Shown here: positions 4,193 through 63,562 of the stretch, in pieces
Layout: each line of letters begins with the position of its first letter
How positions within the stretch are numbered: the first letter of the stretch is position 1
NCBI GenBank assembly: GCA_965205205.1
Contig: CBDBFX010000002.1
Location: forward strand, 1,373,506 to 1,437,505
Reading direction: 5' to 3'
From: Arenicellales bacterium
GTDB taxonomy: Bacteria > Pseudomonadota > Gammaproteobacteria > Arenicellales > JAJDZL01
DNA length: 64,000 nucleotides
The notes under the pieces: model-generated
Told to the model about the DNA's origin: nothing
Databases searched by the model: none
Seen by the model: only the letters and a program-made list of their open reading frames with translations
Program-made: the position numbers and the translations under genes

Positions 4193-4197
4193 AATTT

Positions 4198-26661: not shown

Positions 26662-26745
26662 CCGAAGTTCTGGAAGTAAATAGACGATAGGTGTTTGTTA
26701 TTTTTGTGAATTATTGACCATCCAATGATCAGTTTCTGACTACGT

Positions 26746-27099
26746 TTAGATTTTTACGTAAAGCAGGTCAAAGGCGGTTCGCTGCAGCTCGGTCGGTTCC
26801 GTCAACTGACTGAAACGCCGCTGAAACTGTTCGATGACAACAGTGTTGCGACACAAAGTGCCCAAGTGTCCGAGCAGGCCGCGGAAGTGATGGGGCGGAT
26901 GACCGTGTACCGTGCGCCGCGTCGTCGCTTTACGCCGGGCACTTGTAGAAGGAACGCTGGGCCGCACCGGCGAGCCGCGCCGCGCCTCCTGGCGGTTATC
27001 CTCCGCCAACAGCATTGGCGCCCAGGCCGGTCTTATATGCCACTCCACGTGATAGGCAGGCAGGCACAGGAAGACGTGGGAGCGAACCTGTTCAGTCAA
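26746..27099 (-). pseudogene. IS1634-type B transposase C-terminal fragment
   Basis: The 117-aa ORF contains VRSHVFLCLPAYHVEWHIR, the conserved IS1634 C-terminal block. Confidence 0.7.
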
Positions 27100-27245
27100 C
27101 CGATGATGGATCGGACGCGCCTGCAGATCAATCGTTTTCAGACAGCGGAACGCTTACTCCAGACGGGCCAGGCTCTTGTAGGCGCCGCACGGCGGCACTC
27201 GCCTCCAGTCTGGATTCGGACACCGAGGTGCGAACCACATAGATA

Positions 27246-29079: not shown

Positions 29080-29216
29080 TAGATACCGTCCAGCCGTGCT
29101 TCTCGGGGGATAGAATCGGTGTTGCGGGCGTAGTCAAAGGTGGTGTCGGTAATCCCGGTGTCGAAATGCTTGGCCACCTTGAATCGGTCCTTGACCCGAC
29201 CCAGGCGCAGGACGAT

Positions 29217-29420
29217 GGTCTGACAGATTCAGACCGGAACTGACAAGGCCCGACGCATCAGCTCCTTTCCGTCCTCCAATCGCCGCATCTGACCGACCGT
29301 TTTCTCAATCCCAGCGATGAGGTTCCGCCGACCCACGAAATGGAGTGCCTCTTCCCTGTCGGAGCACTCTGAAAACTCCACCAGACTCTTTTGCTTTTCC
29401 TCATCCTGTATGGCTTCCAT
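29217..29420 (-). pseudogene. ATPase 5' stub (first ~65 codons, frameshifted)
   Basis: MEAIQDEEKQKSLVEFSECSDREEALHFVGRRNLIAGIEKTVGQMRRL is homologous to the N-terminus of 13927..15234. Homology stops at the palindrome GGTCTGACAGATTCAGACC (29217-29235), where it is fused to the IS1634-B relic. Confidence 0.8.
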
Positions 29421-29525
29421 GATGCATCGGGTCAGTTGCATCGACTGCATTGACCGGCACAAAGCGACCGTCGAAACCTGACTGCGGTTCTGGTTTTCTC
29501 AGGCCTGCTGGCGGCCCCGGCCGCG

Positions 29526-30893
29526 GTGTTCGCGGAAGCGTCCTGGTACGGCTCGCTGCGCGGCGGCGTCCTGCTCGACAAGGGCAAAGATGCCAGGTTC
29601 TACGACGGCTACTCGCGCTGGGGCATCAAAGGCTCGAACGAGATATCGGAAGGGCTGTCCGCAGTCTACCGCTTCGAGCACAAGTTCAGCACCGAGGACG
29701 CCGGCCAGGCCGGCGGCCGGCTGGCCTACGTGGGCCTGTCCGGTGGTTTTGGCTCGCTGACGCTGGGACAGATCTGGAGCGCCAGCTACAACCACGCCGG
29801 CGTCATCCGCGACATCGGCAATTATTACAGCAGTGGCGACACCAGTGGCCGGATCGGCAACACCCTGTCCTACGCCTATTCGAACGACGCCTTCAGCGTG
29901 CAGTTCGACGCCATCATGGACGGTAAGAAGGACTCCGGCAACGCCATCGATCAGTGGGAACTCGGGGCGACGGTGAACATCGGCGATATCGGCAAAGTCG
30001 CCTTCGCCCATGTGAAGAAGGAAGACGTCAAAACGGGCAATAAAATGGTGAGGGTGACCAAGTGGTCCGGCGGCGGCCAGTGGCTCTACAGCCCGAAACT
30101 ATGGTCGAAAAACGCGGAAAGCACCTGGTCCATCAGTAAAAAAGGAACGGACAACACTCTAACTGCTGGTACTGGCGAGTTTCAGGAAGAATTTGAAAAA
30201 GGAAAGGAGATGAGAGTCGTTGTTCAACCAATAACCGTTTATGTCAAGCTGCCAAACACCAATTATGACGCGGATAAAAAACAATTGAAAGATGCGGTGG
30301 CGGGTACCCTTCATGGCCATCCCAGTTTTCAACGAATCACAGGAAGTGGTGGTGATTCGAATGTCAAACTTAATCCCAAGGTTTCTTTTCGGTATGGTGC
30401 TGCGTGTGATCCCACCACCCCACCAAGAGACGAGACTAAATGTGTAAAGACTACCGCCTATCAGGCTGAATTGAAACATAATGCAATAGTCGACAACGGC
30501 GTATTCTTTTTCGCTCCCGGTCATGTTGAGGATGAGATGGACTATGGCGAGAAGTCAAGCCACGTGTCGGCATCGTTTGACCTCGGTGCGGTGACCCTGG
30601 GTCTGGGCCATTCGACGACGAAGTTCATGGATCCGATGAAGACGAAGAAGGCGAAGACGAACTACATCGGCGTCAACGGTGCCATTGGCGACACCGGGCT
30701 GGACTGGCGGGCCTGGTATCGGACCAAGGAGGAGGTGAAGGACAACAACATGACGGTGAAGTCGAAGCCCTGGGGCATCGGTTTGGGCAAGAAACTCGGC
30801 GGTGGCGCTTTGGCCTATGTCGAGCATTGGAACGATGGCGCGAAAGGCGCAAAGAAATCCGGCACGGTGGTCGGCCTGCGCGTCGATTTCTAG
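29526..30893 (+). CDS. porin P2 (general bacterial porin type, type-I central insert); start unresolved
   Basis: EASWYGSLRGGV...RWGIKGSNEISEGL...YVGL.GGFG.LTLGQ N-block and C-terminal ...GGGALAYVEHWNDG...TVVGLRVDF (terminal F). Track coordinates use GTG 29526. The signal-peptide codons (LTAVLVFSGLLAAPAAVFA) lie in frame upstream, behind a TGA at 29451-29453. Confidence 0.75.
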   Translation: MFAEASWYGSLRGGVLLDKGKDARFYDGYSRWGIKGSNEISEGLSAVYRFEHKFSTEDAGQAGGRLAYVGLSGGFGSLTLGQIWSASYNHAGVIRDIGNYYSSGDTSGRIGNTLSYAYSNDAFSVQFDAIMDGKKDSGNAIDQWELGATVNIGDIGKVAFAHVKKEDVKTGNKMVRVTKWSGGGQWLYSPKLWSKNAESTWSISKKGTDNTLTAGTGEFQEEFEKGKEMRVVVQPITVYVKLPNTNYDADKKQLKDAVAGTLHGHPSFQRITGSGGDSNVKLNPKVSFRYGAACDPTTPPRDETKCVKTTAYQAELKHNAIVDNGVFFFAPGHVEDEMDYGEKSSHVSASFDLGAVTLGLGHSTTKFMDPMKTKKAKTNYIGVNGAIGDTGLDWRAWYRTKEEVKDNNMTVKSKPWGIGLGKKLGGGALAYVEHWNDGAKGAKKSGTVVGLRVDF

Positions 30894-30922
30894 CGACCGG
30901 CTCTTTCACATTGGGAGAATGG

Positions 30923-30950
30923 AACGGGGTGCGAAAGCACCCCGTTTCGT
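30923..30950 (+). terminator. hairpin terminator after P2
   Basis: AACGGGGTGC-GAAA-GCACCCCGTT followed by TCGT. The same stem recurs after all four porins. Confidence 0.6.
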
Positions 30951-31142
30951 CGTACCATGGATTTGAAGATCATCTGAGACGGGGTGCGGTTTCAAGCCGC
31001 AGCCCTGAAACATACCGGCGGCTCAATCCACCTCAGACCGGTTCGGAGACGTTGCAAAGTGATCTTCTGCCAACATCGCCGAACAAGGTACCGGGCGGTG
31101 AATCTCAGATTTCTGTCTTTCATCCGCGTTTCAGGCGGAACC

Positions 31143-31171
31143 AAAAAAACGGGGTGCAATAGCACCCCGTT
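31143..31171 (-). terminator. rho-independent terminator after P3
   Basis: On the minus strand: ACGGGGTGC-TATT-GCACCCCGT followed by TTTTTTT. Confidence 0.8.
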
Positions 31172-31198
31172 CCATTCTCATCAATGTGAACTCGGTCG

Positions 31199-31976
31199 CT
31201 AGAAACTCACGCCCAGTCCGACCACCGTGCCACTGGATTTCTTTGCTCCTTTCACACCGTCATTCCAATGCTCGACATAAGCCCAGGCGCCACCGCCCAG
31301 ATCCTTGCCCAACCCGATGCCCCAGGGCTTCGTCTTCGTGCCGTCGGCATGCTCCTTGGTCCGATACCAGGCCCGCCAGTCCAGCCCGGTGTCGTCAATG
31401 CCACCGTTAACGCCGATGTAATTCGTCTTCGTCTTCATGGCTCCCGCCTTGTTCGACTTCATCGTCGAATGACCCAGTCCCAAGGTGACCGCACCGATTT
31501 CAAACGATGCCGATATGTGATTCGACTTGCTGCCCGGCTCGCTGATAACTCTTTTGGTGACTGATTGCGTGCTGGCCGGTGTCAAGACTTGACTCGGCAA
31601 ATAGTAGAACGCCTGTATCTCGTCACTAACCTTTTTTGCGCCGGCCGATGTTCCCCCTGGAGTTTCGGTCGTGCCGAAATGTGCATAGGCGTCTATTTTC
31701 ACACACGCATCGGAAATACCATCATCAGTGTTTTTTTTGTCTATACATTCATATTTACCACTAGCCTTTTCGGTCTCAATAACGAACCAATAACTGTCGG
31801 GGTCGCCAACGGGATGATTGCCTTTACGAAGGGCCGTTATTTGAAGGTTGTATAGAGTGATTTGCTGAGTGTCCTTGCTGAGATCTGGAGCGTCAAAAGC
31901 CCCGCCTTTCTTCACATAGACCTTGATTTTCTTGACCTCTCTGAATTCAACAGCACCGGTGTTAGCAACAACTAGA
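31199..31976 (-). pseudogene. porin P3, 3' part (type-II central insert + C-block)
   Basis: ...ITALRKGNHPVGDPDSYWF...SKSNHISASFEIGAVTLGLGHST...AYVEHWNDG...VVGLGVSF. Separated from its 5' part by IS-C copy 4. Confidence 0.85.
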
Positions 31977-49850: not shown

Positions 49851-49942
49851 GGTGTAGATTTTGATGGTGTGCCGGACTTTAGGCACTGAGACGAGCCACG
49901 GTGATGCGACGATGTCCGGCTGCTAATTTCCGCTCCTTTAAG

Positions 49943-50502
49943 TCGAAGTTCTGGAAGTAAATAGACGATAGGTGTTTGTTATTTTGGTGATATGACGACT
50001 ATCCAATGCTCAATTTCTAACCAATTTTAATTTTTACGTGAAGACACAAGGTGCCTAGGTGTCCGTGCAGGCCGCGGAAGTGATGGGTCGGATGACCATC
50101 TACCGTGCGCCGCGTCGCCGCTTTGTGGTGGGCACTGGCAGAAAGAACGCTGGGACGCACCGGTGAGCCTGGCCTCCTCCTGGGCGGTCATCGTCCGCGA
50201 ACAGCAGTGGTGCCATGCCTGTCTTAGGGGCCACTCAACGTGATCGGCGAGCAGGCACAGGAAGATGGAAAAGGGGGGGGGCGCGAACTCGTTCAGTCAG
50301 CCGATGATGGATCGGACGTACCTGCAGATCAATCGTTTTCAGACAGCGGAACGCCCGTTACACGCTGGCCAGGCTATTGTAGGGGCGCACGGCGGCACTC
50401 GGCTCCCAGTCTGGATTCGGACACCGAGATGCGAACCACATAGATGCCGTCCAGCCGTGCTTCTCAGGCGATGCCCTTGACCCGACCTAGGCGCAGGGTG
50501 AT
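49943..50502 (-). mobile_element. IS1634-type B relic, copy 2 (heavily decayed)
   Basis: The first ~95 nt are near-identical to 26663-26760. The remainder aligns with copy 1 but has stops, a deletion of the KHFDT..DSIPR block, and a G9 tract (50273-50281). Confidence 0.7.
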
Positions 50503-50701
50503 GGTCTGACAGATTCAGACCGGAACCGACAAGGTTCGACACCTCCTTTCCGGGCGCCAGCCGTCGCATCTGACCGATCATATTCACAATGCTGCCGATG
50601 AGGTCGCGCCGACCCACGAAATAGATTGCCTCTTCCCTGTCGGAGCACTCTGAAAACTCCGTCAGACCCCTTTCCTTTTCCTCATTCCACATGGCTTCCA
50701 T
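50503..50701 (-). pseudogene. ATPase 5' stub
   Basis: MEAMWNEEKERGLTEFSECSDREEAIYFVGRRDLIGSIVNMIGQMRRLAPGKEVSNLVGSGLNLSD. Ends at the palindrome (50503-50521), fused to the IS1634-B relic at the same point as at 29217. Confidence 0.8.
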
Positions 50702-50842
50702 GATGCATCAGATCAACTGTATTCACCGGCGCAAAGCGACCGTCAAAACCTGACTGCGGTTCTGGTTTTCTCAGGCCTGCTGGCGGCGCCGGCCGCGGTT
50801 TTCGCGGAGGCGTCCTGGTACGGCTCGCTGCGCGGCGGCGTC

Positions 50843-52120
50843 ATGCTCGACAAGGGCCAGGACACCGAGTTCTACGACGGTGGCTCGCGCTGGGGCATCA
50901 AAGGCGCCAACGAGATTTCGGAAGGCCTGACCGCGGTCTACAACTTCGAGCACGAGATCAGCACCGCGGATGCCGGTCAGGCCAAAGGCCGGCTGGCCTA
51001 CGTGGGCCTGTCCGGCGGCTTCGGCTCGCTGACGCTGGGACAGATCTGGAGCGCCAGCTACAACCACACCGGCGTCATCCGCGACATCAGCAACTGGCAC
51101 AGCGCCCACGAATCCAGTGGCCGGGTCGGCAGCGCCCTGTCCTATGCCTATACGGGTGACGCTTTCAGCGTGCAGTTCGACGCCATCATGGCCGGTGGGA
51201 AAGACACCGGCAAGGCCGTCGATCAGTGGGAACTCGGCGCGACGGTGAACATCGGCGATATCGGCAAGGTCGCCTTCGCCCATGTGAAGAAGGAAGACCA
51301 GATGATGGACATGATGACGCCAGCTACAATCTCTTATAATGTTGTCAATAATGTCGTTCAGGCGGCAGCAGACGGCAAGACAACAATAATGCCAAAGAAA
51401 GTCAAAGTCTACGTGAAAGCGAAAGTAGGAGGGACAGGAGCAGATAAAGATAATAAGGGGAAATTCAACGATGCGGACCTCGACAGTGCCAACGACCGAG
51501 CGAATCTTCGCAGTGGTATTACCATAACAGCCCTTCGCAAGGGCAATAAACCCGTAGGCGATCCCGACAATTATTGGTTCTTCGTTGATGACGCCAGCGA
51601 AAAGACAGGCGCTGCTTATGATTGCCTGACTGCTGACAGCAAGATTTCCGACGATTGTGTCGGAATAGATATCTATGCACAATTCTATACGACATCCTCT
51701 AACCTGGACGAAAAGCTTTACTTTCTGCCGACCGAACCAGGCGTGACGGCGGCCGGCACGAAAAAAGTCATCAGCGAGTATGGTAGCAAGTCGAGTCACG
51801 TGTCGGCATCGTTTGAGATTGGTGCGGTGACCTTGGGTCTGGGCCATTCGACGACGAAATCCATGGATCCGACGAATACGATGAAGGCGAAGACGAACTA
51901 CATCGGTGCTTCGGGTGGGATTGGCGATACCGGACTGAGCTGGAACGCTTGGTATCGGAACAATAAGGATTTCAAAGGCGTGAAGACGAAGCCTTGGACC
52001 ATCGGCCTGAAAAAGACCCTGGGCGGTGGCGCCTGGGCCTATGTCGAGCATGGGAACGATGGCAAAAAGGGTAAGGATAAATCCAGCAGCACGGTGGTCG
52101 GACTGGGGGTGAATTTCTAG
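50843..52120 (+). CDS. porin P5 (type-II central insert); start unresolved
   Basis: Full barrel blocks and terminal VGLGVNF. The track start ATG 50843 removes the signal peptide. The signal-peptide codons are in frame upstream, but the TTG seen in P3 is CTG here. Confidence 0.75.
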   Translation: MLDKGQDTEFYDGGSRWGIKGANEISEGLTAVYNFEHEISTADAGQAKGRLAYVGLSGGFGSLTLGQIWSASYNHTGVIRDISNWHSAHESSGRVGSALSYAYTGDAFSVQFDAIMAGGKDTGKAVDQWELGATVNIGDIGKVAFAHVKKEDQMMDMMTPATISYNVVNNVVQAAADGKTTIMPKKVKVYVKAKVGGTGADKDNKGKFNDADLDSANDRANLRSGITITALRKGNKPVGDPDNYWFFVDDASEKTGAAYDCLTADSKISDDCVGIDIYAQFYTTSSNLDEKLYFLPTEPGVTAAGTKKVISEYGSKSSHVSASFEIGAVTLGLGHSTTKSMDPTNTMKAKTNYIGASGGIGDTGLSWNAWYRNNKDFKGVKTKPWTIGLKKTLGGGAWAYVEHGNDGKKGKDKSSSTVVGLGVNF

Positions 52121-52147
52121 AGATTGACTTTCAGTCGATGAGAATGG

Positions 52148-52177
52148 AACGGGGTGCGATAGCACCCCGTTTCTTTT
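52148..52177 (+). terminator. rho-independent terminator after P5
   Basis: AACGGGGTGC-GATA-GCACCCCGTT followed by TCTTTT. Confidence 0.75.
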
Positions 52178-52500
52178 GAACTCCACATGAAACGCTGAGG
52201 AAAGACAGGCATCTCAGATTCACCGTTCGGCACTTGTTCGGCGATGTTGGTAGAAATTCACTTTGCGGCGTCCCCGAACCGGCCTGAGTCCGATTGAATC
52301 GACGGTCATGTTCAGGGTTGGGGCTACAACCGAAGCCTCAGGTGACCTTCACATCCAGAGTGCGCGAAACGGACTTCCGCGATAATGAGATCGGGTGCAG
52401 AAGCGGTCTGCGGGAACCTCGAGCGAATGGTGGACTGAGATCCTGTCTGTCAGGAAAGGTCATATACGGCACACGGTAAACATGATGATCTGAAGCGGAA

Positions 52501-52528
52501 ACGAAACGGGGTGCGAGAGCACCCCGTT
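52501..52528 (-). terminator. hairpin terminator after P6
   Basis: On the minus strand: AACGGGGTGC-TCTC-GCACCCCGTT followed by TCGTTT. Confidence 0.6.
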
Positions 52529-52558
52529 CCATTCTCACCGACGTGAAAGAGCCGGTCG

Positions 52559-53935
52559 CTAGAAATTCACGCCCAGGCCGACCACCGTGTTGCCGCCTTT
52601 CTCTTTGCCTTTCTTGCCGTTGTTCCCGTGCTCGACATAGGCCCAGGCACCACCGCCCAGGGTCTTTTTCAGGCCGATGGTCCAGGGCTTCGTCTTCTCC
52701 ATCATGCCAGAATCGGCATCATATGCCTCCTTGGTCCGATACCAAGCGTTCCAGCTCAGTCCGGTATCGCCAATCCCACCCGAAGCACCGATGTAGTTCG
52801 TCTTCGCCTTCTTCGTCTTCATCGGATCCATGGACTTCGTCGTCGAATGGCCCAGACCCAAGGTCACCGCACCGACATCAAAAGACGCCGACACATGACT
52901 CGACTTCTCACCATAGTCCATCTCATCCTCAACATGCTCGGGAGCGAAATAGAATGTTTCTTCATCTATTTCATTCTTTTTCAATGTGGCCTTATAGCCC
53001 GTAGTCTCTGCACAAAGTGCATCAGTAACAGCAGCAGTTGGTTTTGTTGTTGGATTAGGTGCGAGTGCCTTCTTACAAGTATCTATAGTACCATACACAA
53101 AAGCATCATTTTGTTTGGTAAATTTATTTTCGGCGGCGGCGGTACCAGAAGTTTCAAGCTTCATAACGCCAAAATCAGCATCACTCGCCACCGATTTATT
53201 TGTCGTATGTTTAATTCGTTCATTGTCCTTGTCATAATTGGTGCCATCCTTCTTGACATAAACGGTGAGTGATTGAACAGGGATTCTCATCACCTTTCCT
53301 TCTCCTTTATTGGTCAGGAATAGCGAACCGCTCGGCGCCGTCCATAGCATCGGACTGTACCGCCATCGGGGATTATTGGAGACGGATTTGTCGGTCCACT
53401 TTGTCACTCTCACCATTTTATTGCCCGTTTTGGCATCTTCCTTCTTCACATGGGCGAAGGCGACTTTGCCGATGTCGCCGATGTTCACCGTCGCTCCGAG
53501 TTCCCACTGATCGATGGCCTTGCCGGAGTCTTTCTTACCGTCCATGATGGCGTCGAACTGCACACTGAAGGCGTCGCCGACAAACGAATACGACAGGGCG
53601 TTGCCGACCCGGACGCTGGTGTCGCTGGCGCTGTGCCAGTTGGCGATGTCGCGGATGACGCCGGCGTGGTTATAGCTGGCGCTCCAGATCTGTCCCGCCG
53701 TCAGCGTGCCGAAGCCACCGGACAGCCCCACGTAGGCCAGCCGGCCGCCGGGCTGACCGGCGTCCGCGGTGCTGATCTTGTGCTCGAAGTTGTAGACCGC
53801 GGACAGGCCTTCCGACACCTCGTTGGAGCCTTTGATGCCCCAGCGCGAGCCGCCGTCGTAGAACTGGGCGTCTTTGCCCTTGTCCAGCATGACGCCACCG
53901 CGCAGCGAGCCGTACCAGGATGCTTCGGCGAACAC
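52559..53935 (-). CDS. porin P6 (type-I central insert); start unresolved
   Basis: Same architecture as P2. The track start is the GTG inside the signal-peptide cleavage region. The upstream in-frame leader reads TTG CAT TGA. Confidence 0.75.
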   Translation of the reverse strand: MFAEASWYGSLRGGVMLDKGKDAQFYDGGSRWGIKGSNEVSEGLSAVYNFEHKISTADAGQPGGRLAYVGLSGGFGTLTAGQIWSASYNHAGVIRDIANWHSASDTSVRVGNALSYSFVGDAFSVQFDAIMDGKKDSGKAIDQWELGATVNIGDIGKVAFAHVKKEDAKTGNKMVRVTKWTDKSVSNNPRWRYSPMLWTAPSGSLFLTNKGEGKVMRIPVQSLTVYVKKDGTNYDKDNERIKHTTNKSVASDADFGVMKLETSGTAAAENKFTKQNDAFVYGTIDTCKKALAPNPTTKPTAAVTDALCAETTGYKATLKKNEIDEETFYFAPEHVEDEMDYGEKSSHVSASFDVGAVTLGLGHSTTKSMDPMKTKKAKTNYIGASGGIGDTGLSWNAWYRTKEAYDADSGMMEKTKPWTIGLKKTLGGGAWAYVEHGNNGKKGKEKGGNTVVGLGVNF

Positions 53936-54033
53936 TGCGGCCGGCGCCGCCAGCAGGCCTGAGAAAACCAGAACCGCAGTCAGGTTTTGACGGTCGCTTT
54001 GCGCCGGTCAATGCAACTGACACCCGATGCATC

Positions 54034-54241
54034 ATGGAAGCCATGTGGAATGAGGAAAAGTAAGGGGTCTGACGGAGTTTTCAGAACGTTCTGACAGGGA
54101 AGAGGCACTCTATTTCGTGGGTTGACGGGACCTCATCGCCGGGATGGAGAAAACGGTCGGTCAGATGCGGCGATGGGAGGACGGAAAGGAGTTGATGCGT
54201 CGAACCTTGTCGGTTCTGGTCTGAATCTTTCAGACCAGCGC
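54034..54241 (+). pseudogene. ATPase 5' stub, degenerate
   Basis: MEAMWNEEK then TAA at 54061, plus later frameshifts. Ends at the palindrome variant GGTCTGAATCTTTCAGACC (54218-54236) + AGCGC. Confidence 0.75.
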
Positions 54242-54455
54242 CCTGCGCCTGGGTCGGGTCAAGTGCCGATTCAAGGTGGCCAAGCATTTCGACACCGTGA
54301 TCACCGACACCACCTTTCACTACGCCCGCAACAACGATTCGATCGCCCGAGAATTACGGCTGGACGGCATCTATGTGGTTCGCACCTCGGTGTCCGAATC
54401 CAGACTGGAGGCGAGTGCCGACGTGCGGCGCCTACAAGAGCCTGGCACGTCCGGA
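54242..54455 (+). mobile_element. IS1634-type B relic, copy 3
   Basis: LRLGRVKCRFKVAKHFDTVITDTTFHYARNNDSIARELRLDGIYVVRTSVSESRLEASADV, then cut by an IS-B-like end. Confidence 0.75.
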
Positions 54456-55416
54456 GACACAACATCCCACACATAAGTCTTTCCATTCTGGGCCATGCTC
54501 CGCCTTCTGAGCGCCCGATAGGTGAAGACCGACTCCCGCAGTAGCACATACCCCTGCCACAGTTTCATGATGCCCGGCAGCGGCTGACTGCGACGCGGAT
54601 GAAAACCCGCCAGCCGCGCCACATCGACGACGAAACTGCGGATGTCCGTCGCCTCGCCGGGCGGCGGCTTTGGTCGGCGGATGCCATAATCATCCAGGCG
54701 GGCGTTCAGCACCAGCAGGTCATCTTCACTCACCACCTCGTCGGCCGGCGTCTGCTGGCGGTCGCCGCGGCGCCAGCCGCACCCGCGCTGCCCACAACTC
54801 CAGCCGCACCTCGCGTCCCGCACGCTTCCGCCTCCCCCCGCAGGCCACCACCTGCACGGTCTTTTCCGCCAGCTGCGCCCACAGACACTCGCGCTCCCCC
54901 CCCCCTGCCAACAGCACCTCGCGGCGACTCCCGCGCCGCACCCGAACCAGCAACCCGGCCGACTGCGAACGCGCCTGATCCAGCAGCCCCCACAGGTCGC
55001 CCTCCCGATCGCATACCGTCACCACCCGCGTCCGCGCACAGGGCCGCTCCAGACCCTCGCCCCAGCGCTCGCTTTCCAGCTCCAGCCGATCCGCATAGTC
55101 CGCATCCAGCGCATACACCCCCAAGGGACGACCCGCCTCGTTCACCGCTAGACCAACATGCGCCTTCAGACCCTGCACGCCCGACCCACCGCCACCAATG
55201 TTCACCAGCCCCGATGTCGCCGGCCGACTCGCATAGTTCAGCGCCGTCGTGTCCTGCAGCGCCAGCACCACCGGCTCCAGCCGACAGCGATCCACCATCG
55301 CCGCCCAGTGCGGCTACGAGATGTGTTCCATTGTCACTCGCTCATTTGATAACAGCCGGTAAGCCGCACGCAAGTCCGCCCGCCGTGGAAAGATCTGCGG
55401 CAGCGACGCCCCCGGC

Positions 55417-58026
55417 CTGTCAACAAACCACACTTGACACGAAGAAAATAATTTGCTAAATTATGTGGCATGCAAATCGGCATGCGACAATATGACAAAG
55501 AGACGGTAGCTTGGTTCCGGCAGGCGGTGGTCGGGGGCGAGACCTCGCGGACGCAGTTGGCGTCGCAGCTGTGTGAACGGCTGGACTGGCGCAATGCGAA
55601 GGGCGAGCTGTGTGAGTCGTCAGCCCGAAAGGTGTTGCCGACGCTGGCGTTGCGGCTGGACGTCAAGCTGCCGGCGCCGGTGCGGTCGGCACCGTTGCGT
55701 TCGGCGGCCGGGTTGCCAGCGCCGCCGGTGGTCTGCGTGTCGGGGTCGCTGGCGGATTTGGGGGCGGTGACTTTGGTGCCGGTGGTCGATGAGGCAACCA
55801 GCGTGCCGTTTCGGGCGCTGATGGCCTGGCATCATCCGGAGGGGGAGCCGCGGCATCCGGGCAAGCAGCTGTGCTGGCTGATTCACAGCGAACGTCATGG
55901 GGTGTTGGGTGGCATCGGATTTGTGGCGGCGGGGTGGCATCAGCAGGCGCGCGACCGGTTCATCGGCTGGGGTGCGCGGGCGCGGGTGGCGAACCTTCAT
56001 CAGGTGGTGAACCATCATCGTTTTTTACTGTTGCCAGGGGTGCGGGTGGCGAATCTGGCGTCGCATGTGCTGGGTCAGGCGGTGGCGGCGTTGCCGGCGG
56101 CCTGGTGGCGGCGTCATCGGGAGACGGTGGTGCTGACGTATACGTATGTGGGCCCGGCGCATGCGGGGACCTGTTATCGGGCGGCGGGATGGTCGTGTGC
56201 CGGACAGACGTCGGGTCGCTCGCCGAGTGGTGGCGAGGGGGTGCGGCGGACGGTGTGGATGAGGCCGCTGGTGGCGGGGTGGCAGGCGACGCTGCAGGCG
56301 GCGCCGGTGCGGACGTTGCCGGTGGGTCCGGCGCGGCATGCGGCGGGCGACTGGGCGACCCGGGAGTTCGGTGGGAACGGTCTGACGGATGGTCGTCTGC
56401 GGCAGCGTCTGATCGAGATGGGTCGGTGCTGGCAGCAGCGGCCGGGGGCACCAGTGGCGGAGATTTTTCCGGAACCGGCGGATCAGCGGGCGGCCTATCG
56501 GCTGCTGTCCAATGCCCGGGTCAGTTCGGCCGATGTGCTGGAGAGTCATCAGGCGATGACGGTGCAGCGGGTGGGCGAGGCGGACGGGACGGTGCTGGTG
56601 GTGCAGGACACCACGGTGCTGAACTACCAGACGCTGCGCGACTCGACCGCCGGTCTGGTGGCGATTGGTGGCGGCGGTTCGGGCAGTGTGGGGGTGGTGG
56701 CCCATGTGCTGCTGGTGCTGACGCAGACGGGTCAGCCGTTGGGGGTGTTGGATGTGGAAGCGGATTTTCGGGCGCCGGGGCCAAAGACCGCGCGGCGGGC
56801 GGCGGCCGGCGCCAAGAAGGAAAGTGGTCGGTGGCTGCGCGGCTTCGAGCGCACGGCGGAGCTGGGGCGGGCCGATGGCGACAGGCGGGTGGTGACGGTG
56901 GGCGACCGCGAGGCGGACCTGTGGGCGCTGTATGCGCGCCAGGCGGTGGAACCGACCGCCGGTCTGTTGGTGCGGGTGGCCGCGGGGAATCGGCGGCGGG
57001 TGCAGGTCGGCGATGAGACGCCACTGCTGGAAGACTACCTGGCCTCACTGGCGCCGTGCGCCACGACCGAGGTGGCGGTTCAGGCCCGTGGCGGGGCGCA
57101 CGCCCGCGGCCATCGGACCGTGTCGGTGAACCTACAGATCGCGCGGGTGCGCGTGTGTGCGCCGCGCGGCGAGCAGCCGTCCCACCTGACGCTGACGGCG
57201 GTGCGGGTGAGCGACGCGGCACCGGAAGACGGCCGCCCGCCGCTGCACTGGCTGCTGCTGTGTTCCGAAGGCGAGGCCACGGCCGAGTGGGCGCAACGCA
57301 TCCAAGGTTGGTATCAGCGCCGCTGGAGCATTGAGGAGTACTTTCGGGTGCTCAAGACTGGCACCCGCATCGAGGATCGGCAGCTTGATGCGGCCGAAGA
57401 CCTGTGCAAGTGTCTGTGCTTCGATGCCATTGCCGCCTGGCAGGTGTTCGCCCTGCAGCGGGCCGCCCGCCATCAGCCGGAGTGCCCGGCCGAGCAGTTC
57501 GTCACCGGCGAGCAGATCGAGGTGCTCTATGCCTGTCTGCGCCGGGTGCGCATCCGACATCCGCGCGGCCCGCCCAAGGGCGCGCTTGACATCCGCACCT
57601 TTGTCATTGATGCGGCCCGCTTCGCCGGCTTCCGACCGTCGCGTCGGCAACCGCTGCCGGGGGCACAGAAACTGTGGAGCGGTCTGCGCTATCTGCAGTG
57701 GGCCCTGCTCGGCTATCAGGCCGCCGTTGAAGACGAGTCCCGGCCGCGTCGAAGACGACCGAGCCGGCGTTCTTGACGCCGGCCGCGCGGCCGGCACCAA
57801 CCGGCCGCCAACCGCTCTCGGTCCGACCGGCCGAGACGGCCGCGCGGGCCGAAAAAAACCTCATCCGACTCTGCGCACCACCCGCGACAACCGCCACCGA
57901 CTCCCCACGGCCCGCACCGTCCCCTCACCGCTAAGCCACTACGAAAAACAGGCCTGAAAGGACCGATCCCTTGCCTTCCGATTGCAAAGGCGCGACATCA
58001 CTGTGTTACGTGTGACTTCGTGACAG
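55417..58026 (+). mobile_element. IS-A copy 3 (2610 bp)
   Basis: Same termini as copy 2. 9-bp TSD GCCCCCGGC (55408-55416 and 58027-58035). Confidence 0.9.
55470..57776 (+). CDS. IS-A transposase (768 aa)
   Basis: Intact and nearly identical to 23039..25345. Confidence 0.85.
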   Translation: MQIGMRQYDKETVAWFRQAVVGGETSRTQLASQLCERLDWRNAKGELCESSARKVLPTLALRLDVKLPAPVRSAPLRSAAGLPAPPVVCVSGSLADLGAVTLVPVVDEATSVPFRALMAWHHPEGEPRHPGKQLCWLIHSERHGVLGGIGFVAAGWHQQARDRFIGWGARARVANLHQVVNHHRFLLLPGVRVANLASHVLGQAVAALPAAWWRRHRETVVLTYTYVGPAHAGTCYRAAGWSCAGQTSGRSPSGGEGVRRTVWMRPLVAGWQATLQAAPVRTLPVGPARHAAGDWATREFGGNGLTDGRLRQRLIEMGRCWQQRPGAPVAEIFPEPADQRAAYRLLSNARVSSADVLESHQAMTVQRVGEADGTVLVVQDTTVLNYQTLRDSTAGLVAIGGGGSGSVGVVAHVLLVLTQTGQPLGVLDVEADFRAPGPKTARRAAAGAKKESGRWLRGFERTAELGRADGDRRVVTVGDREADLWALYARQAVEPTAGLLVRVAAGNRRRVQVGDETPLLEDYLASLAPCATTEVAVQARGGAHARGHRTVSVNLQIARVRVCAPRGEQPSHLTLTAVRVSDAAPEDGRPPLHWLLLCSEGEATAEWAQRIQGWYQRRWSIEEYFRVLKTGTRIEDRQLDAAEDLCKCLCFDAIAAWQVFALQRAARHQPECPAEQFVTGEQIEVLYACLRRVRIRHPRGPPKGALDIRTFVIDAARFAGFRPSRRQPLPGAQKLWSGLRYLQWALLGYQAAVEDESRPRRRRPSRRS

Positions 58027-59046
58027 GCCCCCGGCCGCTCCAGCCACGCCCGACCCATGCGCAAGATCCGCGCACAGCACCGACCGCTAGCCGCACACCA
58101 GCGGTTTCAGCCACACCGACCGCATCACCGTGCCGCCGCTCGGCGAACAACCCGACGTGCCGCCCTCACCGCAACGCCAACCCGCCGCACGGTAGCTCAG
58201 CCCCGTATGCTCGGGCTCCACATACGTGTACGCCAGCACCGGTCGTACATTGTATTTCGTCTCCCAATCCTCAGCCACCTGTGCGCACGCCAGCTCCAGC
58301 ACCCGACTCAGATTAGCCACCCGCGCCTCACCCGACCAGCCGATGAACGCATCGCGCACCTGCTGTTGCCGCCCAGCACCCCATGACGTTCGCTGTGGAC
58401 CAGCCAGCATAGCTGTTTGCCCGGATGCCGCGGCTCCCCCTCCGGATGATGCCAGGCCATCAGCGCCCGAAACTGTACGCTGGTTGCCTCATCGACCACC
58501 GGCACCAAAGTCACCGCCCCCAGCTCCGCCAGCGTCCCCGACACGCAGACCGCCGCCGGTTCTGGCAACCCGGCCGTCGAACGCACCGGCAGCACCTTGC
58601 GGACCGACGACTCGCACAGCTCCCCCTTCGCATTGCGCCAGTCCAGCCGTTCGCTCAGCTGCGACGCCAACTGCGTGCGCGTGGTCCCACCACCTACCGG
58701 AACTAGTCCACCGTCTCCTGATCATATTGTCGCATGCCGATTTGCATGCCACATAATTTAGCAGATTATTTTCTTCGTGTTAAGAGTGTCGAAGTGACAG
58801 GCCCCGGACCGCTCTGCTTTCGAATGCCGCACCCTTCCCGTCTCTAACCCCTGCTTTAATGACTCTCCAATCGCTTTCCAATGGCTCAAAATGGAGACAG
58901 CGAAATTGCCTCAGCATATAATGAGGTCCACAAACAATAAAATTTTGACTTGATCACGCAACGTTAAATGTCTCGATTTGATTATTACAGAAGCAGGGGT
59001 GGAAGGATTGAATGATGTCTCAAACAGTCAACAGTCGGTCGTTGGC

Positions 59047-59649
59047 ATGAATACCGCGACATTTGATACATACGCGGCCGCGAGTGAGCTGCAGGCGCAC
59101 GGTTTCACCGAAGACCAGGCTGTTGCGACTGTTTCAATGGTTCGCAGTGCAATGAACGAAAGCGTCGCTACGAAAGCTGATATTGCGCAGCTTGAAAGTA
59201 GCATGAAGGCTGATATTACACAGCTTGAAAGTAGCATGAAGGCTGATATTGCACAGCTTGAAAGTGGCATGAAGGCTGACTACGCGCAGCTTGAAAGTGG
59301 CATGAAGGCTGATATTGCACAGCTTGAAAGTGGCATGAAGGCTGACTACGCGCAGCTTGAAAGTGGCATGAAGGCTGATATTGCACAGCTCGAAAGTCAC
59401 ATTCAGACGTACAGTGCACAGCTTGAAAGTCGGATGGAGACTCTGGAAAGTCGGATGAAGGCTGACAATGCACAGCTTAAAAGTGACATGAAGGCTGACA
59501 GTGCTCGGCTTGAATATCGGATGGAGACTCTGGAAAATCGGATGAAGGCTGACAATGCTGAGCTTGATAGCCGCTCGACCAAACGGTTGTACGTTGCTGC
59601 ATTTGGTATCGTCGCAATCACAGTTGGATTGCTGAAGCTCCTTGACTGA
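59047..59649 (+). CDS. DUF1640-like tail-anchored coiled-coil protein (copy 2, one extra repeat)
   Basis: Same N- and C-termini as 20071..20640. Seven ADI/YxQLES(S/G)MK units. Confidence 0.65.
   Translation: MNTATFDTYAAASELQAHGFTEDQAVATVSMVRSAMNESVATKADIAQLESSMKADITQLESSMKADIAQLESGMKADYAQLESGMKADIAQLESGMKADYAQLESGMKADIAQLESHIQTYSAQLESRMETLESRMKADNAQLKSDMKADSARLEYRMETLENRMKADNAELDSRSTKRLYVAAFGIVAITVGLLKLLD
59176..59406 (+). repeat. 7 x 33-bp in-frame tandem repeat
   Basis: Same unit as 20200..20397. Units 3-6 carry GGC (Gly) instead of AGC (Ser). Confidence 0.9.
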
Positions 59650-60046: not shown

Positions 60047-61267
60047 CAGCAATTCCCGCCAAGGACATCGCCCGTGGATTCGGCGTGATTTCCGGCTTCA
60101 AATGCAAGAGTCGGGAGGATGCGGGCAAGGTGGACCCTCCGGCGGGTTGCCGGATCGGCGGTTGGCCACGTGATACCCTGAAGAACCGGCCGGTCACACA
60201 TTCGGTCACGGCGACCGGGTCAGGACGTGTCGAAAGGCACCAGGTCGGGCTTGCGGTGCCCGAAGGCGATGGCCTTATACAGCATCTCCCAGTTCTGGAT
60301 GTGGAACTCCAGAAACGAGGTGTTTCCGCTGGCGCCGGAGCCGATCCTGCGGGCGGACGGTGCCAGGAAGAACGACTGCGAGCGCAATGCGGCCAAGCGG
60401 CTGCTGGGGGACGTGCGGCGGGAGCATCCGCATCTGAAACTGCTGGTGGAGGATGCGCTGGACTCGAACGGTCCCGCACATCCGGCTGCTGCAGGAACTG
60501 AACCTGCGCCATGTGCTGGGGGTGAAGCCGGGCGACCAAGGGGAACTGTTCCACTGGGTCAAGGTTACGGCGGCGACCCGAATCGTGGAGATGGATCGGG
60601 ACGACAGCCGGTTTTGCTTCCGGTTCCTGAACGGCGTGCCGCTGAATGAGGCGAACTTCGACCTGGAGGTGAACTTCCTGGAGTGCTGGGAGACTCGCCC
60701 GAACGGTCGGACGCTTCACTTCTCCTGGGTCACGGACCTGGAGGTCACGGCAGCCAACGCCTACGAGCTGATGCGGGCGGTACGGCCCCGCTGGCGCATC
60801 GAGAACGAGACCTTCAACACCCTGAAGAACCAAGGCGACGGCTTTGAACACAATTTCGGCCACGGCCGACGGCATCTGGCGACGGTGTTCGCCCACCTGA
60901 CGATGCTGGCGTTTCTCATCGATCAGGTGCAGCAGCGGTGCTGCGCGCTGTTCCAGGCCGCGCGGGCGGAAGCGGGCGGCTCGAGTGCCCTGTGGAGGCG
61001 GCAGCTCGGACTGTTTCTGGAGTTCCACATCCAGAACTGGGGGAGGCTGTATAAGGCCATCGCCTTCGGGCACCGCAAGCCCGACCTGGTGCCTTTCGAC
61101 ACGTCCTGACCCGGTCGCCGTGACCGAATGCGTGACCGGCCGGTTCTTCAGAATATCACGTGGCCAACCCGCCGGAGGGTCCACCTTGCCCTCATCCTCC
61201 CGACTCCTGCATTTGAAGCCGGAAATCACGCCGAATCCACGGGAGATGTCCTTGGCGGGAATTGCTG
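60047..61267. mobile_element. IS-D relic with the same (3') end at both extremities
   Basis: 60047-60300 is an inverted copy of ~61005-61267 (terminus plus the last ~30 transposase codons). In between, the + strand carries the mid to C-terminal transposase (60300..61109, frameshifted). Confidence 0.75.
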
Positions 61268-61440
61268 TCCCGGAATTGAGCCCCACATGAAACTGGGCCG
61301 GTTGCCGGTAGCGGCTTGAGGATGGAAGATGTACGAGTCAGTGGAAAACCTGCCACTGCGACTCGCCCGCCGCACCATTCCTGGCCGCCACATTTGAGAA
61401 AGATGGCGTGCAGTATGCCTGCTTACCAGGAAAGTCAGAG

Positions 61441-62757
61441 TCAGTCGTTCAGTCTGCTTTCAATCAGGTGCTGGCGGAAAGACGGAATCGGGATGATGAT
61501 GCGGCGCTTTTCTTTATGGATGATACCGGCTCGGATCATTTCACCGACGAACTCCTGCGGTTCCATACTTCTTGGCATGCAGTCCGCCGATTTTTGCTTT
61601 TCTTTCCAAACCCGTTCACCAAGCAGGTCCAACAGCTCCGACTCACTGCAGCCACCCTCACCGATCATTTCGGCGACATCGGCCAGCAGGTTGACGCAGG
61701 CTGTGATGCTGGAACTGATCAGACGCCGCGCATAGTAGTCCTTTCTCATCCGGTTCCCTTCTGCACGAAGCCTGTTCTCATCCACTGCGGCAAGGTCGCC
61801 TTTCCCGTCTCTCAGCTCCGTCGCCAGCACGCGCATGTAATTGTGCAGATGCTGCGGCCAGCCGTTGGACCACGCCGCAATCTTCCCCGCAATGGCGGCA
61901 TCCCCAGAGCCCTCAATCTCATATTTCTCCAGCAGTAGACGCACCGCCTCGGCCGCCTCGGCCGCCTCGGCCCCGGCCAGCGTCCGCAGCGTCCGCACAT
62001 GCCCCTGACTCAGTCTTGAGATCCCCGCCTCCGCCAGACGCGTCTGCGACCAGGCCAGACCCGCCAGCACCGCCACAATCGGCAGTCCATGCCTGCCAAG
62101 ATGTATTCGCAGCAGCAGCTTCTCACCTTCAGGTCCCAGCTTCTGTACCTCATCCACCATCAGCACCACCGGCCGCAGCGCCGACACCCCAGACCTGATC
62201 TTCTTCGGCAGATGGTCCCGTATCGCATCCGACAGCCGCCTGTCATACAGCCGCCACAGATCTCTGAGCGTCAATGCGCCCTGCCGTTCCGTCTCGGCAG
62301 TCCTGACGTCAAATCCACCGCCCCAGAAATTCAGTCCGCCCACCAGCTCCCGCGTCCGGACTCGTTTGAGAATCTCACCCCCGTCGCTCCTGATCCGGTT
62401 CGCAATGACATGGGTCAGCTCGGACTCGTCTTCCAGATCCAGAGGATCCAAACTGACCGATACCGGCCCGTCCTTCCGCCGCTCCCAGATCTGCCGAAGA
62501 TGGCTCAGCAGGGCCGTCTTGCCCGCCCCCGGCGCACCCTGAACCAGCCAGGTGCGCTGGTCTGACAGATTCAGACCGCAACCGACAAGGTTCGACGCCG
62601 CCCTGCCGGCCATCAGCCGCCGCATCTGATCGACCGTGTCCTCAATGCCCGAAATGACATCCCGCCGTCCCACGAAATAAAGCGCATATTCCTTGTCGGA
62701 ACGCTTCGAGAACTCCGTCAGTCCTCTTTCTTTTTCTTCATTCCACATGGCTATCAT
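61441..62757 (-). CDS. AAA/STAND-like P-loop ATPase, full length (copy 2)
   Basis: Paralogue of 13927..15234 (MIAMWNEEKERGL..., GAPGAGKTALL, VVLMVDEVQKL) with a 3-aa AEA insertion. The track ORF's extension to 63291 is antisense porin. Confidence 0.75.
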   Translation of the reverse strand: MIAMWNEEKERGLTEFSKRSDKEYALYFVGRRDVISGIEDTVDQMRRLMAGRAASNLVGCGLNLSDQRTWLVQGAPGAGKTALLSHLRQIWERRKDGPVSVSLDPLDLEDESELTHVIANRIRSDGGEILKRVRTRELVGGLNFWGGGFDVRTAETERQGALTLRDLWRLYDRRLSDAIRDHLPKKIRSGVSALRPVVLMVDEVQKLGPEGEKLLLRIHLGRHGLPIVAVLAGLAWSQTRLAEAGISRLSQGHVRTLRTLAGAEAAEAAEAVRLLLEKYEIEGSGDAAIAGKIAAWSNGWPQHLHNYMRVLATELRDGKGDLAAVDENRLRAEGNRMRKDYYARRLISSSITACVNLLADVAEMIGEGGCSESELLDLLGERVWKEKQKSADCMPRSMEPQEFVGEMIRAGIIHKEKRRIIIPIPSFRQHLIESRLND

Positions 62758-62847
62758 CACACCTCCATACGGGTCCACGCATTGACTTGCCCCGCTTGGA
62801 CTCCAGTATACACCCGAACGGGGGAGGGGCTGGACTGGAAACTCCTG

Positions 62848-63562
62848 ATGGCCATTCTGGTTTTCTCGGGCGCCATGGCCGCCTCGGCGGCCGTCCTCGC
62901 CGAGGCGGTCTGGTACGGGTCGCTGCGCGGCGACGTCATGCTGGACAAAGGCATGGACGCGAAGTTCTACGGCGGCTGCTCGCGCTGGTGCATCAAAGGC
63001 TCGAACGAGGTGGTGGAGGAACTGTCCGCGGTCTGCCGCTTCGAGCACAGGTTCTGCACCGAGGACGCCGGTCAGGCCGGTGTCATCCGCGACATCGGCC
63101 ACTGGTACGGCGGTCCGAACGCCAGCGGCCGGGTCGGAAAGGTCCTGTCTTATGCTTATTCGAACGACGCCTTCGGTCTGCAGGTCGATGCCATCATGGA
63201 CGGTAAGAAAGACTCCGGCAGGGCCATCGATCAGTTGGCACTCGGGGCGACGGTGAACATCGGCGACCTCGGTCGGGTCGCCTTTGCCCATGTGAGGAAG
63301 GAAGATGTCAAAACGGTGTGCAAAGTGGCGAAAGTGGCCAAGTGGGCCAGCGGCTCCACAGTCCGAAAAATTGGTCAGATGGTGCGGAGGACTCCTGGCA
63401 AATCAAAACAGCTGATAATGGTGACACTCAGCTCAAGGAAGAATTTGCCAGGGGAATGGAGATGACGATTGTTGCTCTGCCAGGTACCGTTTGTGTGCAA
63501 AAGAGTCACGCTGATTATGACGCGGCGAAAAACCAGTTGAAAGATGTGGCGGCAGGTGGAAT
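62848..63562 (+). pseudogene. porin P7: same internal deletion as P1, frameshift, truncated by IS3
   Basis: MAILVFSGAMAASAAVLA/EAVWYG... It lacks the same ~28-aa block as P1. Type-I insert with a frameshift near 63465. Homology ends about 63562. Confidence 0.8.

Follow-up and report, generated by a model that had tools for sequence, protein, structure and literature searches.

Porin genes without start codons in an Arenicellales bacterium: possible silent cassettes for variation of a surface loop

Within a 64,000-nt stretch of DNA from an Arenicellales bacterium (the window; contig CBDBFX010000002.1, positions 1,373,506 to 1,437,505), we analyzed locus B, a pair of convergent general-porin paralogues identified by open reading frame (ORF) calls: P5 (ORF 50843-52120, + strand) and P6 (ORF 52559-53935, - strand). 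Both genes lack the start codon of their relatives while keeping uninterrupted bodies, and copies in the same state recur along the chromosome and in other Arenicellales genomes. From sequence comparisons, we put it at an even chance that the start-less copies are silent, archival cassettes exchanged by homologous recombination in a manner resembling msp2 or pilS. A broader proposal is that Arenicellales vary the surface of a classical general porin in this way, complete genes being fed by clustered start-less full-length cassettes, with locus B as two archive cassettes and a further porin of the chromosome, P0121, as a recent product; this we put forward more tentatively.

The loss of the start was followed in P5, in P6, in a porin fragment near 38 kb of the window, and in A1, the type I gene of a second pair (locus A). 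The start context of the family is CCTG-ATG (proteins beginning MPVLIFSG... or MAILVF...), whereas all four of these copies read CCTG-ACT. In addition, relatives in L001 and L003 (loci fetched for comparison carry L numbers and cover about 4 kb either side of each porin) have AAGGTGAT nine nt upstream of the ATG, a motif lacking in A1, P5, P6 and the 38-kb fragment. The P5 leader (50702..50806, + strand) is signal-peptide-like coding sequence (LTAVLVFSGLLAAPAAVFA) with no ATG, GTG or TTG upstream; ACT at 50753 replaces the ATG of relatives, and a CTG is found at 50717 where the 38-kb fragment has TTG. The porin frame of P5 is open from 50717, and the mature sequence 'EASWYG' begins at 50807. 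In the P6 leader (53927..54033, - strand), a TTG (54016-54014) is followed by CAT and TGA (54010-54008) and later by ...NLTAVLVFSGLLAAPAAVFA, ACT again replaces the family ATG, and the mature start lies at 53926. The third codon from the upstream in-frame candidate is TCA in both the 38-kb fragment (TTG) and P5 (CTG), and is the stop codon TGA in both P6 (TTG) and A1 (CTG). A translatable N-terminal signal peptide, which a general porin needs for export, is missing from P5, P6 and A1. In their present form, these three are porin genes by descent and not functional ones, and P5 and P6 cannot yield an exported porin.

The start-less state is common in this chromosome, in which 10 of the 15 called porins begin inside or after the signal peptide. 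Nevertheless, the bodies of A1, P5 and P6 are uninterrupted over 437-455 codons, and the ratio of nonsynonymous to synonymous substitution rates (dN/dS) in the barrel blocks of the window copies ranges from 0.10 to 0.55. One could suppose that P5 and P6 are ordinary expressed paralogues, two of many porins, translated from non-canonical starts such as CTG. The open P5 frame running from CTG 50717 through signal-peptide-like sequence, the strong terminator that each gene possesses and dN/dS values below 1 would agree with this. We give hardly any credence to it, as TGA follows at codon 3 after the upstream TTG or CTG in P6 and A1, and later candidates remove the signal peptide. Moreover, there is no Shine-Dalgarno (SD)-like motif such as AAGGTGAT in L001 or GAGGAA in L056, and the ATPase start codon and the P5 CTG are only 15 nt apart. 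We also considered an upstream 17-codon ORF, whose stop overlaps the P5 CTG, as a translational-coupling device, and dropped it because the frame relation is not preserved in P6.

By sequence, P5, P6 and A1 belong to the general porins. Porin_4 scores were 60.5, 54.0 and 64.7 bits for P5, P6 and A1, respectively (curated cut-off 27), and Porin_1 scores were 38-41 bits (curated cut-off 23.7). The AlphaFold model of mature P5 has 16 strands, with a mean predicted local distance difference test score (pLDDT) of 78 that exceeds 85 in the barrel, in both conserved blocks, and a helix-bearing loop of the L3 type (residues 82-105) between strands 5 and 6. The nearest solved structures in Foldseek searches with this model were OmpT, OmpU, Omp32, PorB and OmpF (E-values of about 1e-15 to 1e-11), with target-normalised template modelling (TM) scores of 0.58-0.75, mostly 0.64-0.75. 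The C-termini end ...GVNF, with the aromatic residue typical of general porins.

Across the family, a 5′ block of about 490 nt (strands 1-9) and a 3′ block of about 345 nt (strands 10-16), the latter followed by a conserved terminator hairpin, enclose a hypervariable centre of 480-520 nt. In P5, the 5′ block occupies 50807..51297 (strands 1-9 plus loop L3), the central cassette, termed type II, 51298..51775, and the 3′ block with the stop codon, ending ...GVNF, 51776..52120. In P6, on the opposite strand, the 5′ block lies at 53436..53926, the type I cassette at 52919..53435, and the 3′ block with the stop codon at 52559..52918. When strands were counted in the model, turns of 2-4 residues alternated with longer loops, which would place the variable centre in extracellular loop L5 (mature residues ~165-325 in P5, modelled with low confidence; the P6 cassette would encode the same loop). 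The inner ends of the arms of the inverted repeats described below, at 51297 and 51776, correspond to mature residues ~165 and ~325, the edges of this low-confidence centre. This coincidence of arm ends with barrel/loop edges suggests that the central cassette encodes one giant surface loop. The pattern of conserved ends and variable centre is repeated in OZ220493.1, the nearest genome, and in other genomes. A search for conserved 5′ and 3′ 'boxes' among 45 copies gave the first 30 nt of mature coding sequence as the best window (0.82), with modest contrast.

The conserved blocks and the centres have been combined in different ways within the chromosome. P6, A1 and P5 are P0001, P0004 and P0014 of one 3,805,514-bp Arenicellales contig, which carries at least 14 porin paralogues and a fifteenth, P0121, found through the 90% cluster of P5; cluster look-ups for further hidden twins turned up P0121 alone. 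The 14 paralogues are 75-95% identical in the N block and 67-99% in the C block, and 13-83% in the centre. P0008 resembles P5 in the N block (94%) and C block (96%) and shares only 14% of its centre. In P0010, a P5 centre (81%; nothing else exceeds 22%) is joined to the C block of P6 (95%). The C block of P0013 is 99% identical to that of A1, with an N block at 82%, and P0009 and P0011 are 83% identical in the centre with flanks at 80% and 76%. The P5 centre matches P0010 at 81% and P0121 at more than 99%, and all other paralogues at no more than 21%. Block-wise incongruence was also seen in OZ220493.1 (e.g., centre 96% vs. N block 78%). Within the window, the four 5′ arms form a patchwork of alternating affinities; in a permutation test of the pairwise homoplasy index (PHI) type on 60 informative sites, a single permutation out of 1000 attained the observed value ((1+1)/(1000+1), about 0.002). 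The exchange of central cassettes between differing 5′ and 3′ frameworks, which had been suggested for locus B from its letters alone (hereafter the original prediction), is seen in these mosaics across the porin family.

P0121 ties a start-less copy to a complete one. Its leader is of the P0003 type, its mature residues 1-50 are identical to P0009, and the remaining ~400 residues differ from P5 at 3 positions. At another place in the chromosome, a P5 body is thus preceded by a complete leader, with the apparent breakpoint inside the conserved 5′ block, and this is the one instance in which we traced a complete-leader sequence to an archive copy through a breakpoint in a conserved flank. P0003 itself, on the 23-kb ENA contig L056, has an SD sequence (GAGGAA) six nt before its ATG and adjoins uvrA, and its homology with the window copies begins only inside the signal peptide. 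The porins with complete leaders in the source genome include P0003, P0121 (same leader type) and P0006 (MKIIRN...). Upstream of P0003, at L056 9790-9990, we observed two direct repeats of about 45 nt (CTGTTTCCG.AG.CAT..(A)AAAG..C.GTTCGCCAA.C.GC), which may be a regulatory site; a sigma-70-like match is located at 9718-9745. A 65-residue leader query for further bodies joined to a P0003-type leader gave no matches. Exact-protein look-ups of P0014, P0006, P0010, P0001, P0004 and P0121 found none of them on record and no variant contigs. A search of the arms for a DNA-level crossover site, based on conservation at synonymous sites, gave no distinct candidate.

The start-less but intact state extends beyond the source genome. 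Relatives were confined to long-read metagenome-assembled genomes (MAGs) labelled Arenicellales, and in the fetched loci we followed the sequence upstream of the mature N-terminus for every porin copy. Most copies in at least six further Arenicellales genomes retain no more of the signal peptide than its last ~9 codons, in front of which stand stop codons or unrelated DNA (the pattern occurs in OZ241837.1, OZ219781.1, OY761535.1, OY762925.1, CAXXFC, CAXXJB and CBDEVD), and one or two copies have an SD sequence, an ATG and MKK... leaders. In OZ241837.1, L031+ and L023+ have GGAG, an ATG and a MKKLLVTLALAGTLSAPSVVFA-type signal peptide. In six start-less copies of that genome, the shared sequence begins only at CTGAGTGCACCC..., the last nine codons of the signal peptide, directly before which lies unrelated DNA or a stop codon, and homology between complete and start-less copies starts abruptly at CTGAGTGCACCCTCAG, inside the signal-peptide coding sequence. 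Start-less copies outside the source genome have intact bodies of 400-600 codons. Their pairwise dN/dS is mostly 0.04-0.37 and rises to as much as 0.78 in a few C-block pairs, over a dS range of 0.1-1.4. Sequences that are not expressible in place and yet evolve as proteins bear the signature of 'functional pseudogenes'.

Alternatively, the start-less copies may be decaying relics of a module that is being lost in a genome swamped by insertion sequences (IS), their starts recently lost, their mosaics left by past recombination and without present role. The ATPase partners of the porins are truncated, the right-hand one containing stops; neighboring copies are IS-cut or degenerate; the defective leader is identical over 72 nt in P5 and P6, consistent with recent spread; and the window is dense in ISNCY- and IS4-family elements. 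We nevertheless think this explanation unlikely, although it has some weight. Stop-free bodies of 425-487 codons are found in all three full-length start-less copies of the window and in seven more called in the rest of the chromosome, and the start-less but intact state is found in at least six other species-level genomes with differing truncation points, where most pairs have dN/dS values of 0.04-0.37 and dS can exceed 1. P0121, in which the P5 body follows a complete leader, likewise speaks against simple decay.

The abrupt homology edge at CTGAGTGCACCCTCAG in OZ241837.1 would also be expected of a shufflon of the Dichelobacter Omp1 or Mycoplasma vsa/vpma type, in which inversion at a fixed site, carried out by a recombinase, would connect start-less cassettes to one leader (promoter, start and signal peptide), with the alternating gene orientation making such joining possible. 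Cassettes alternate in orientation in every genome examined, tyrosine recombinases are present at 9331-12383 of the window and near porins in L029 and L015, and OZ219781.1 contains a divergent start-less pair (L013 3034-3559 / 4036-4561) whose 526-nt inverted 5′ blocks are 97% identical and 476 nt apart. The last is a far better substrate for inversion than locus B, and flipping its short intergenic segment could matter. However, in the ~4 kb covered on each side of the porins no recombinase is conserved beside the modules, none occurs in the ~38 kb of the OZ220493.1 cluster covered by the loci, and no serine invertase was found in the fetched loci or the window. No site-specific recombinase was detected within locus B or its flanks, and those of the window are a trio 38 kb away, by IS fragments, that resembles a mobile element. 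Breakpoints vary: the parent of P0121 changes some 50 codons after the mature start, and the 5′ arms form a patchwork. The window copies are homologous far upstream of the signal peptide, with no sharp 5′ edge among them. Given these observations, we place little credence in a shufflon, although a site-specific mechanism may operate in genomes that show a sharp 5′ edge.

Because breakpoints are variable, we favor gene conversion of the RecA type over a fixed-site recombinase. In the proposed archive, cassettes would swap their L5-coding centres and patches of flank through the conserved barrel-coding blocks, mainly by gene conversion, with other archive copies and with the few complete-leader genes as partners. 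L5-coding centres would thereby be moved into complete genes by homologous recombination, and an extracellular L5 of 150-250 residues would be replaced through its barrel-coding flanks. The cassettes would lie in alternating orientation and, in some lineages, each would have been co-duplicated with a P-loop ATPase.

Several observations weigh against this reading. The evidence comes from one assembly, on which ongoing switching can only be presumed. The P5/P0121 transfer is a single instance that may be old or recent and may have run in either direction. The exact 72-nt run over the leader demonstrates ongoing homogenisation of the defective leader among the copies; the start loss could therefore be recent, in which case intact bodies would be uninformative for the source genome. 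Decay is plain in other copies of the window: IS elements interrupt A2, the partner of A1, and the 38-kb fragment, and the porin copies at 13 kb and 62 kb have stops and a deletion. The paired copies of the nearest genome still contain an internal ATG (MPVLIFSG...), and all of them may be expressed. Purifying selection between start-less copies could partly predate truncation or reflect conversion with expressed copies. Finally, consensus promoter scans of locus B, L001 and L056 were uninformative and located promoters in no copy.

The original prediction had instead attached importance to the geometry of locus B. The layout that it described, namely ATPase stub, P5, spacer, P6 and ATPase stub, is real, with convergent porin paralogues between inverted stubs. 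The 5′ blocks are inverted repeats, about nine-tenths identical as had been judged by eye: the core arms (50713-51297 / 53436-54020; the P5 and P6 5′ blocks are their coding parts) are 585 nt long and 90% identical, and with the upstream regions the blastn match extends over 832 nt at 87.9% (50473-51297 / 54266-53436). The three longest exact runs in these arms measure 72, 35 and 29 nt, and the first covers the leader and signal-peptide coding sequence. Further out, 50368-50472 and 54446-54342 form an inverted stretch of 105 nt that is 90.6% identical. The 3′ blocks, too, are inverted repeats (51776-52177 / 52918-52499, 420 nt, 84.5%; exact runs of 77, 38 and 35 nt, the longest of which is in the 3′ block). 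The separation of 0.44 kb given for them corresponds to the 438 nt between the stop codons of P5 and P6, and the arms themselves are 321 nt apart. All repeat matches had E-values far below chance. An assembly artefact at locus B is unlikely, as the arms are merely 84-88% identical and the interior is unique.

These repeats are sufficient for homologous recombination, given exact runs of 72 and 77 nt, and the model that had been proposed, read here as RecA-dependent, has inversion between the 5′ or the 3′ arms reshuffle cassettes between the two leaders as a variation switch, as in Campylobacter fetus sapA. The lengths of the arms (832 and 420 nt) would allow it. In addition, P0010 joins a P5-type centre to a P6-type 3′ block, as expected from a crossover in the 3′ arms, and OZ220493.1 has modules in both internal orders. 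Nonetheless, we consider this model very improbable. Features of a sap-type system are present in part, in that oppositely oriented homologues with conserved 5′ regions lie in one cluster, but no single promoter is found on an invertible segment, since the segment between the 5′ arms consists of two gene bodies. The genes converge, and both arms contain the same upstream region, a dead stub and a start-less leader; the two inversion states are equivalent for expression, and a sapA-like switch is not supported. The arms are also 12-16% divergent, and the difference in orientation between loci A and B takes in the outer flanks, which is not the outcome of an interior flip. Inversion across the arms of locus B is physically possible and may have contributed to the mosaics, with no expression switch resulting; the sequences favor gene conversion, with silent copies as donors, over inversion.

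Locus A (29189..31960) consists of a stub on the - strand, A1, a spacer (30894-31201) and A2, with the P5/P6-type pair reversed. As had been noted, type I is on the + strand and type II on the - strand here, although A2 is half lost. A1 spans 29526-30893 (+), with its leader from 29445, mature start at 29535 and stop at 30893. A2, from 31202 to ~31960 (-), retains only its C-terminal ~250 codons, the 5′ half being replaced by an ISNCY-family element that starts at ~31970. The spacer of locus B had been read as the reverse complement of that of locus A. This is correct for 244 nt, over which 52137-52372 and the reverse complement of 31182-30942 are 79% identical, and incorrect for the ~125 nt at 52373-52498, which have no counterpart in locus A. 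The sequence lying outside A1 (29080-29188, then 27157-27244) has its match beside P6, and none beside P5. The outer flanks therefore travel with the type I gene, and the difference in orientation concerns the whole pair. The blastn flank matches accordingly bear out locus B as an inverted paralogue of locus A, outer flanks included. An interior inversion as the origin of this difference is ruled out, given that flank segment 29080-29188 accompanies the type I gene.

The remaining parts of locus B surround the porin genes. A left outer flank (the 'X' remnant, 49937..50502) matches 26656-27244 beside locus A in direct orientation at 83-84% (blastn). It is followed by the left ATPase stub (50503..50701, - strand), in which 66 codons (MEAMWNEEKERGLTEF...SNLVGSGLNLSD) show homology to the N-terminal end of a P-loop ATPase of ~435 amino acids (aa). 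On the other side, the right ATPase stub (54034..54266, + strand) begins with an ATG (MEAMWNEEK), has a stop at codon 10 and contains more stops downstream. In the right outer flank (54267..54456), 54267-54373 matches 29188-29080 beside A1, and 54369-54456 matches 27244-27157 at 96.6%; an IS4-family remnant follows from ~54444. The stubs beside P5, P6, A1 and the 38-kb fragment all end at one point, just before the Walker A motif, and full-length relatives are encoded at 61441-62757 (-) of the window and at L001 2595-3893.

Between the genes, each porin has its own strong hairpin and T-run terminator. That of P5 (52148..52178, +; AACGGGGTGC-GATA-GCACCCCGTT then the T-run, z = -5.3) and that of P6 (52497..52528, -; AACGGGGTGC-TCTC-GCACCCCGTT then the T-run, z = -5.6) enclose a spacer core (52179..52496) that is partly homologous to the spacer of locus A. 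In a comparison of spacers made in search of a function, only the terminator hairpins were conserved beyond the source genome, and an Rfam scan of 49.8-54.8 kb gave no match. The hairpin AACGGGGTGC-N4-GCACCCCGTT (52148-52171 and 52505-52528) follows porins at 90-100% identity across many Arenicellales loci (further sites are L005 5372-5400, L036 4994-5023 and L039 994-1028), and this level of conservation extends to genome pairs whose porins share less than 60% identity across the conserved N-terminal block.

The arrangement of locus B has an intact equivalent in OZ220493.1, where the unit is an ATPase (432 aa, -), a porin (+), a porin (-) and an ATPase (430 aa, +). This module recurs at least five times within 55 kb, with 'plain' and 'acidic-extension' porins in both orders; in other genomes, porin clusters alternate in orientation without the ATPase. 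Locus B is a degenerate copy of this conserved module, and its inverted-repeat geometry is inherited from the design of the module. As the family shares its 5′ and 3′ blocks, the inverted repeats are the conserved barrel-coding ends of convergent paralogues, as would be expected of any such pair. In the acidic subfamily (L001 5921-7300, L002, L004, L006; P0002), an acidic insertion of 20-25 residues (DEVTSEDTASEDNMATSAAEPVG) follows the signal-peptide cleavage site and precedes the first barrel strand, and most OZ220493.1 modules pair one acidic and one plain porin in either order. A porin in L006 (4011-5290, OZ220493.1) and P0006 of the source genome each have a full signal peptide (MKFRKN... 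or MKIIRN...) and no ATPase partner, and the former is head to head with a paired copy across 497 nt. These two are candidates for the ancestral or main expressed gene of the cluster.

Comparison with known systems places the Arenicellales porins closest to variation from silent copies. In Anaplasma msp2/p44, silent 'functional pseudogenes' supply central variable regions to an expression site (PMC11946796). Both families are outer-membrane beta-barrels with many variable-centre copies between conserved 5′ and 3′ sequences, start-less copies, few complete genes, breakpoints in conserved flanks and recombination inside the silent repertoire itself. The presumed silent copies of Arenicellales differ in being full-length, with their own terminators, in convergent pairs and co-duplicated with an ATPase gene. 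They also encode a 16-strand general porin of a marine bacterium, not an intracellular pathogen. In TprK, the donors are short segments for seven small variable regions. Variation of Treponema pallidum TprK from silent donor cassettes (PMC10118025) resembles the porin family, which differs in exchanging one loop-coding block of 480-520 nt between whole-gene copies. Helicobacter pylori babA, babB and babC share N- and C-terminal homology around a variable middle and form chimeras through intragenomic homologous recombination (PMC4552749). As is proposed for the porins, conversion changes the 5′ end, and hence the expression control, of a middle region in chimeras with conserved ends. However, bab comprises three loci, all potentially expressed, with no start-less archive, paired modules or clustering. 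In Campylobacter fetus sap, a single promoter is carried on an invertible segment between divergently oriented homologues that encode S-layer proteins. The sap system shares with locus B clustered homologues, conserved 5′ regions in both orientations and recombination within these 5′ regions; locus B differs in being convergent, with two equivalent dead leaders, and in encoding porins. Nested inversion of sap is named in titles cited in PMC1950947. Four linked genes for variant forms of a major outer-membrane protein, Omp1 of Dichelobacter nodosus, with site-specific inversion proposed as the source of antigenic variation, are described in PMC4196234 (citing Moses et al., 1995). Omp1 is thus an earlier example of an outer-membrane protein proposed to vary through DNA rearrangement; the Arenicellales porins differ from it in their varying breakpoints and in having no conserved recombinase or fixed crossover site established.

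With Dichelobacter Omp1, Anaplasma msp2/p44, TprK and Helicobacter bab as outer-membrane protein precedents, the earlier statement that no such system is known to have been described for a porin was too strong. A full-text literature search found no such system described for Arenicellales or for a general porin. The features that differ from all compared systems are the 16-strand general porin, the loop of 150-250 residues as the exchanged unit and the ecology, together with an archive of full-length, terminated copies in convergent or divergent pairs, ATPase-linked in two genomes.

Several other elements of the window were recorded. The ATPase of ~435 aa is co-duplicated with porins as a divergent pair (61441-62757 (-), 14126-15234 (+), L001 2595-3893 and 7414-8706). 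Family searches gave only weak sub-threshold matches to AAA_16, AAA_22 and NACHT, and comparisons with PADLOC, NCBIfam and PDB sequences found nothing. OZ220493.1 carries at least 13 copies and the source genome only about five full-length ones, and more distant relatives (30-36% identity) are widespread in metagenomes. The segments 13536-16341 and 60474-63153 are an inverted duplication 47 kb apart, 92-98% identical, carrying a full-length ATPase and a degenerate porin that has an ATG start, an internal deletion and stops after ~185 codons. They represent a more divergent type of module, ~72% identical to the locus B arms. At 9331-12383 (-), three tyrosine-recombinase genes lie in tandem; those at 11136-12383 and 10192-11139 are intact, and the third (~9331-10195) is cut by an IS4-family element ending at 9370. 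They look like a recombinase-in-trio mobile element and adjoin an IS1634-family fragment (12630-13364) and a truncated porin (13536-13813).

IS4-family elements are found at 7043-9370, 22985-25273, 55377-57704 and 33471-37379, with copies 99-100% identical; their transposase (756-768 aa) has an N-terminal match to Pfam DruA (Druantia protein) before Tn5-type DNA-binding and DDE domains. Two copies at 32658-37379 are nested or inverted, with perfect arms of 1553 nt and 820 nt. The ISNCY family (475-aa transposase) is represented by five copies or fragments, 93-100% identical (2449-4082, 17001-18571, 27244-~29080, 31977-32665 and 37374-38269), one of which splits the A1 flank and another of which truncates A2. 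Paralogous coiled-coil protein genes (20002-20640 and 58978-59649; CCDC90-like and apolipoprotein-like Pfam matches) contain arrays of a 33-nt tandem repeat at 20163-20561 and 59106-59570.

General porins rank among the major receptors for phages and the major targets of host recognition, and their surface loops are usually thought to diversify through point mutation and horizontal exchange. The silent-cassette strategy is known from a handful of pathogens (Anaplasma, Neisseria pili, Treponema and Borrelia). Arenicellales, a marine gammaproteobacterial order, include sponge symbionts, and interplay between phages and Arenicellales is documented (PMC11410982); the selective pressure on the loop is probably phage or host recognition rather than antibody. 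If the start-less copies are indeed an archive, pathogen-style antigenic variation from silent copies would extend to a porin of the OmpF/PorB class, and the silent-cassette strategy would be used on a classical porin by marine, host-associated bacteria as well. Many "N-terminally truncated porins" annotated in Arenicellales MAGs would then not be gene-calling noise, and the role of the co-duplicated ATPase would become a question of interest. Locus B and its relatives would offer a testable locus for how symbionts in phage-rich sponge tissue vary their surface.

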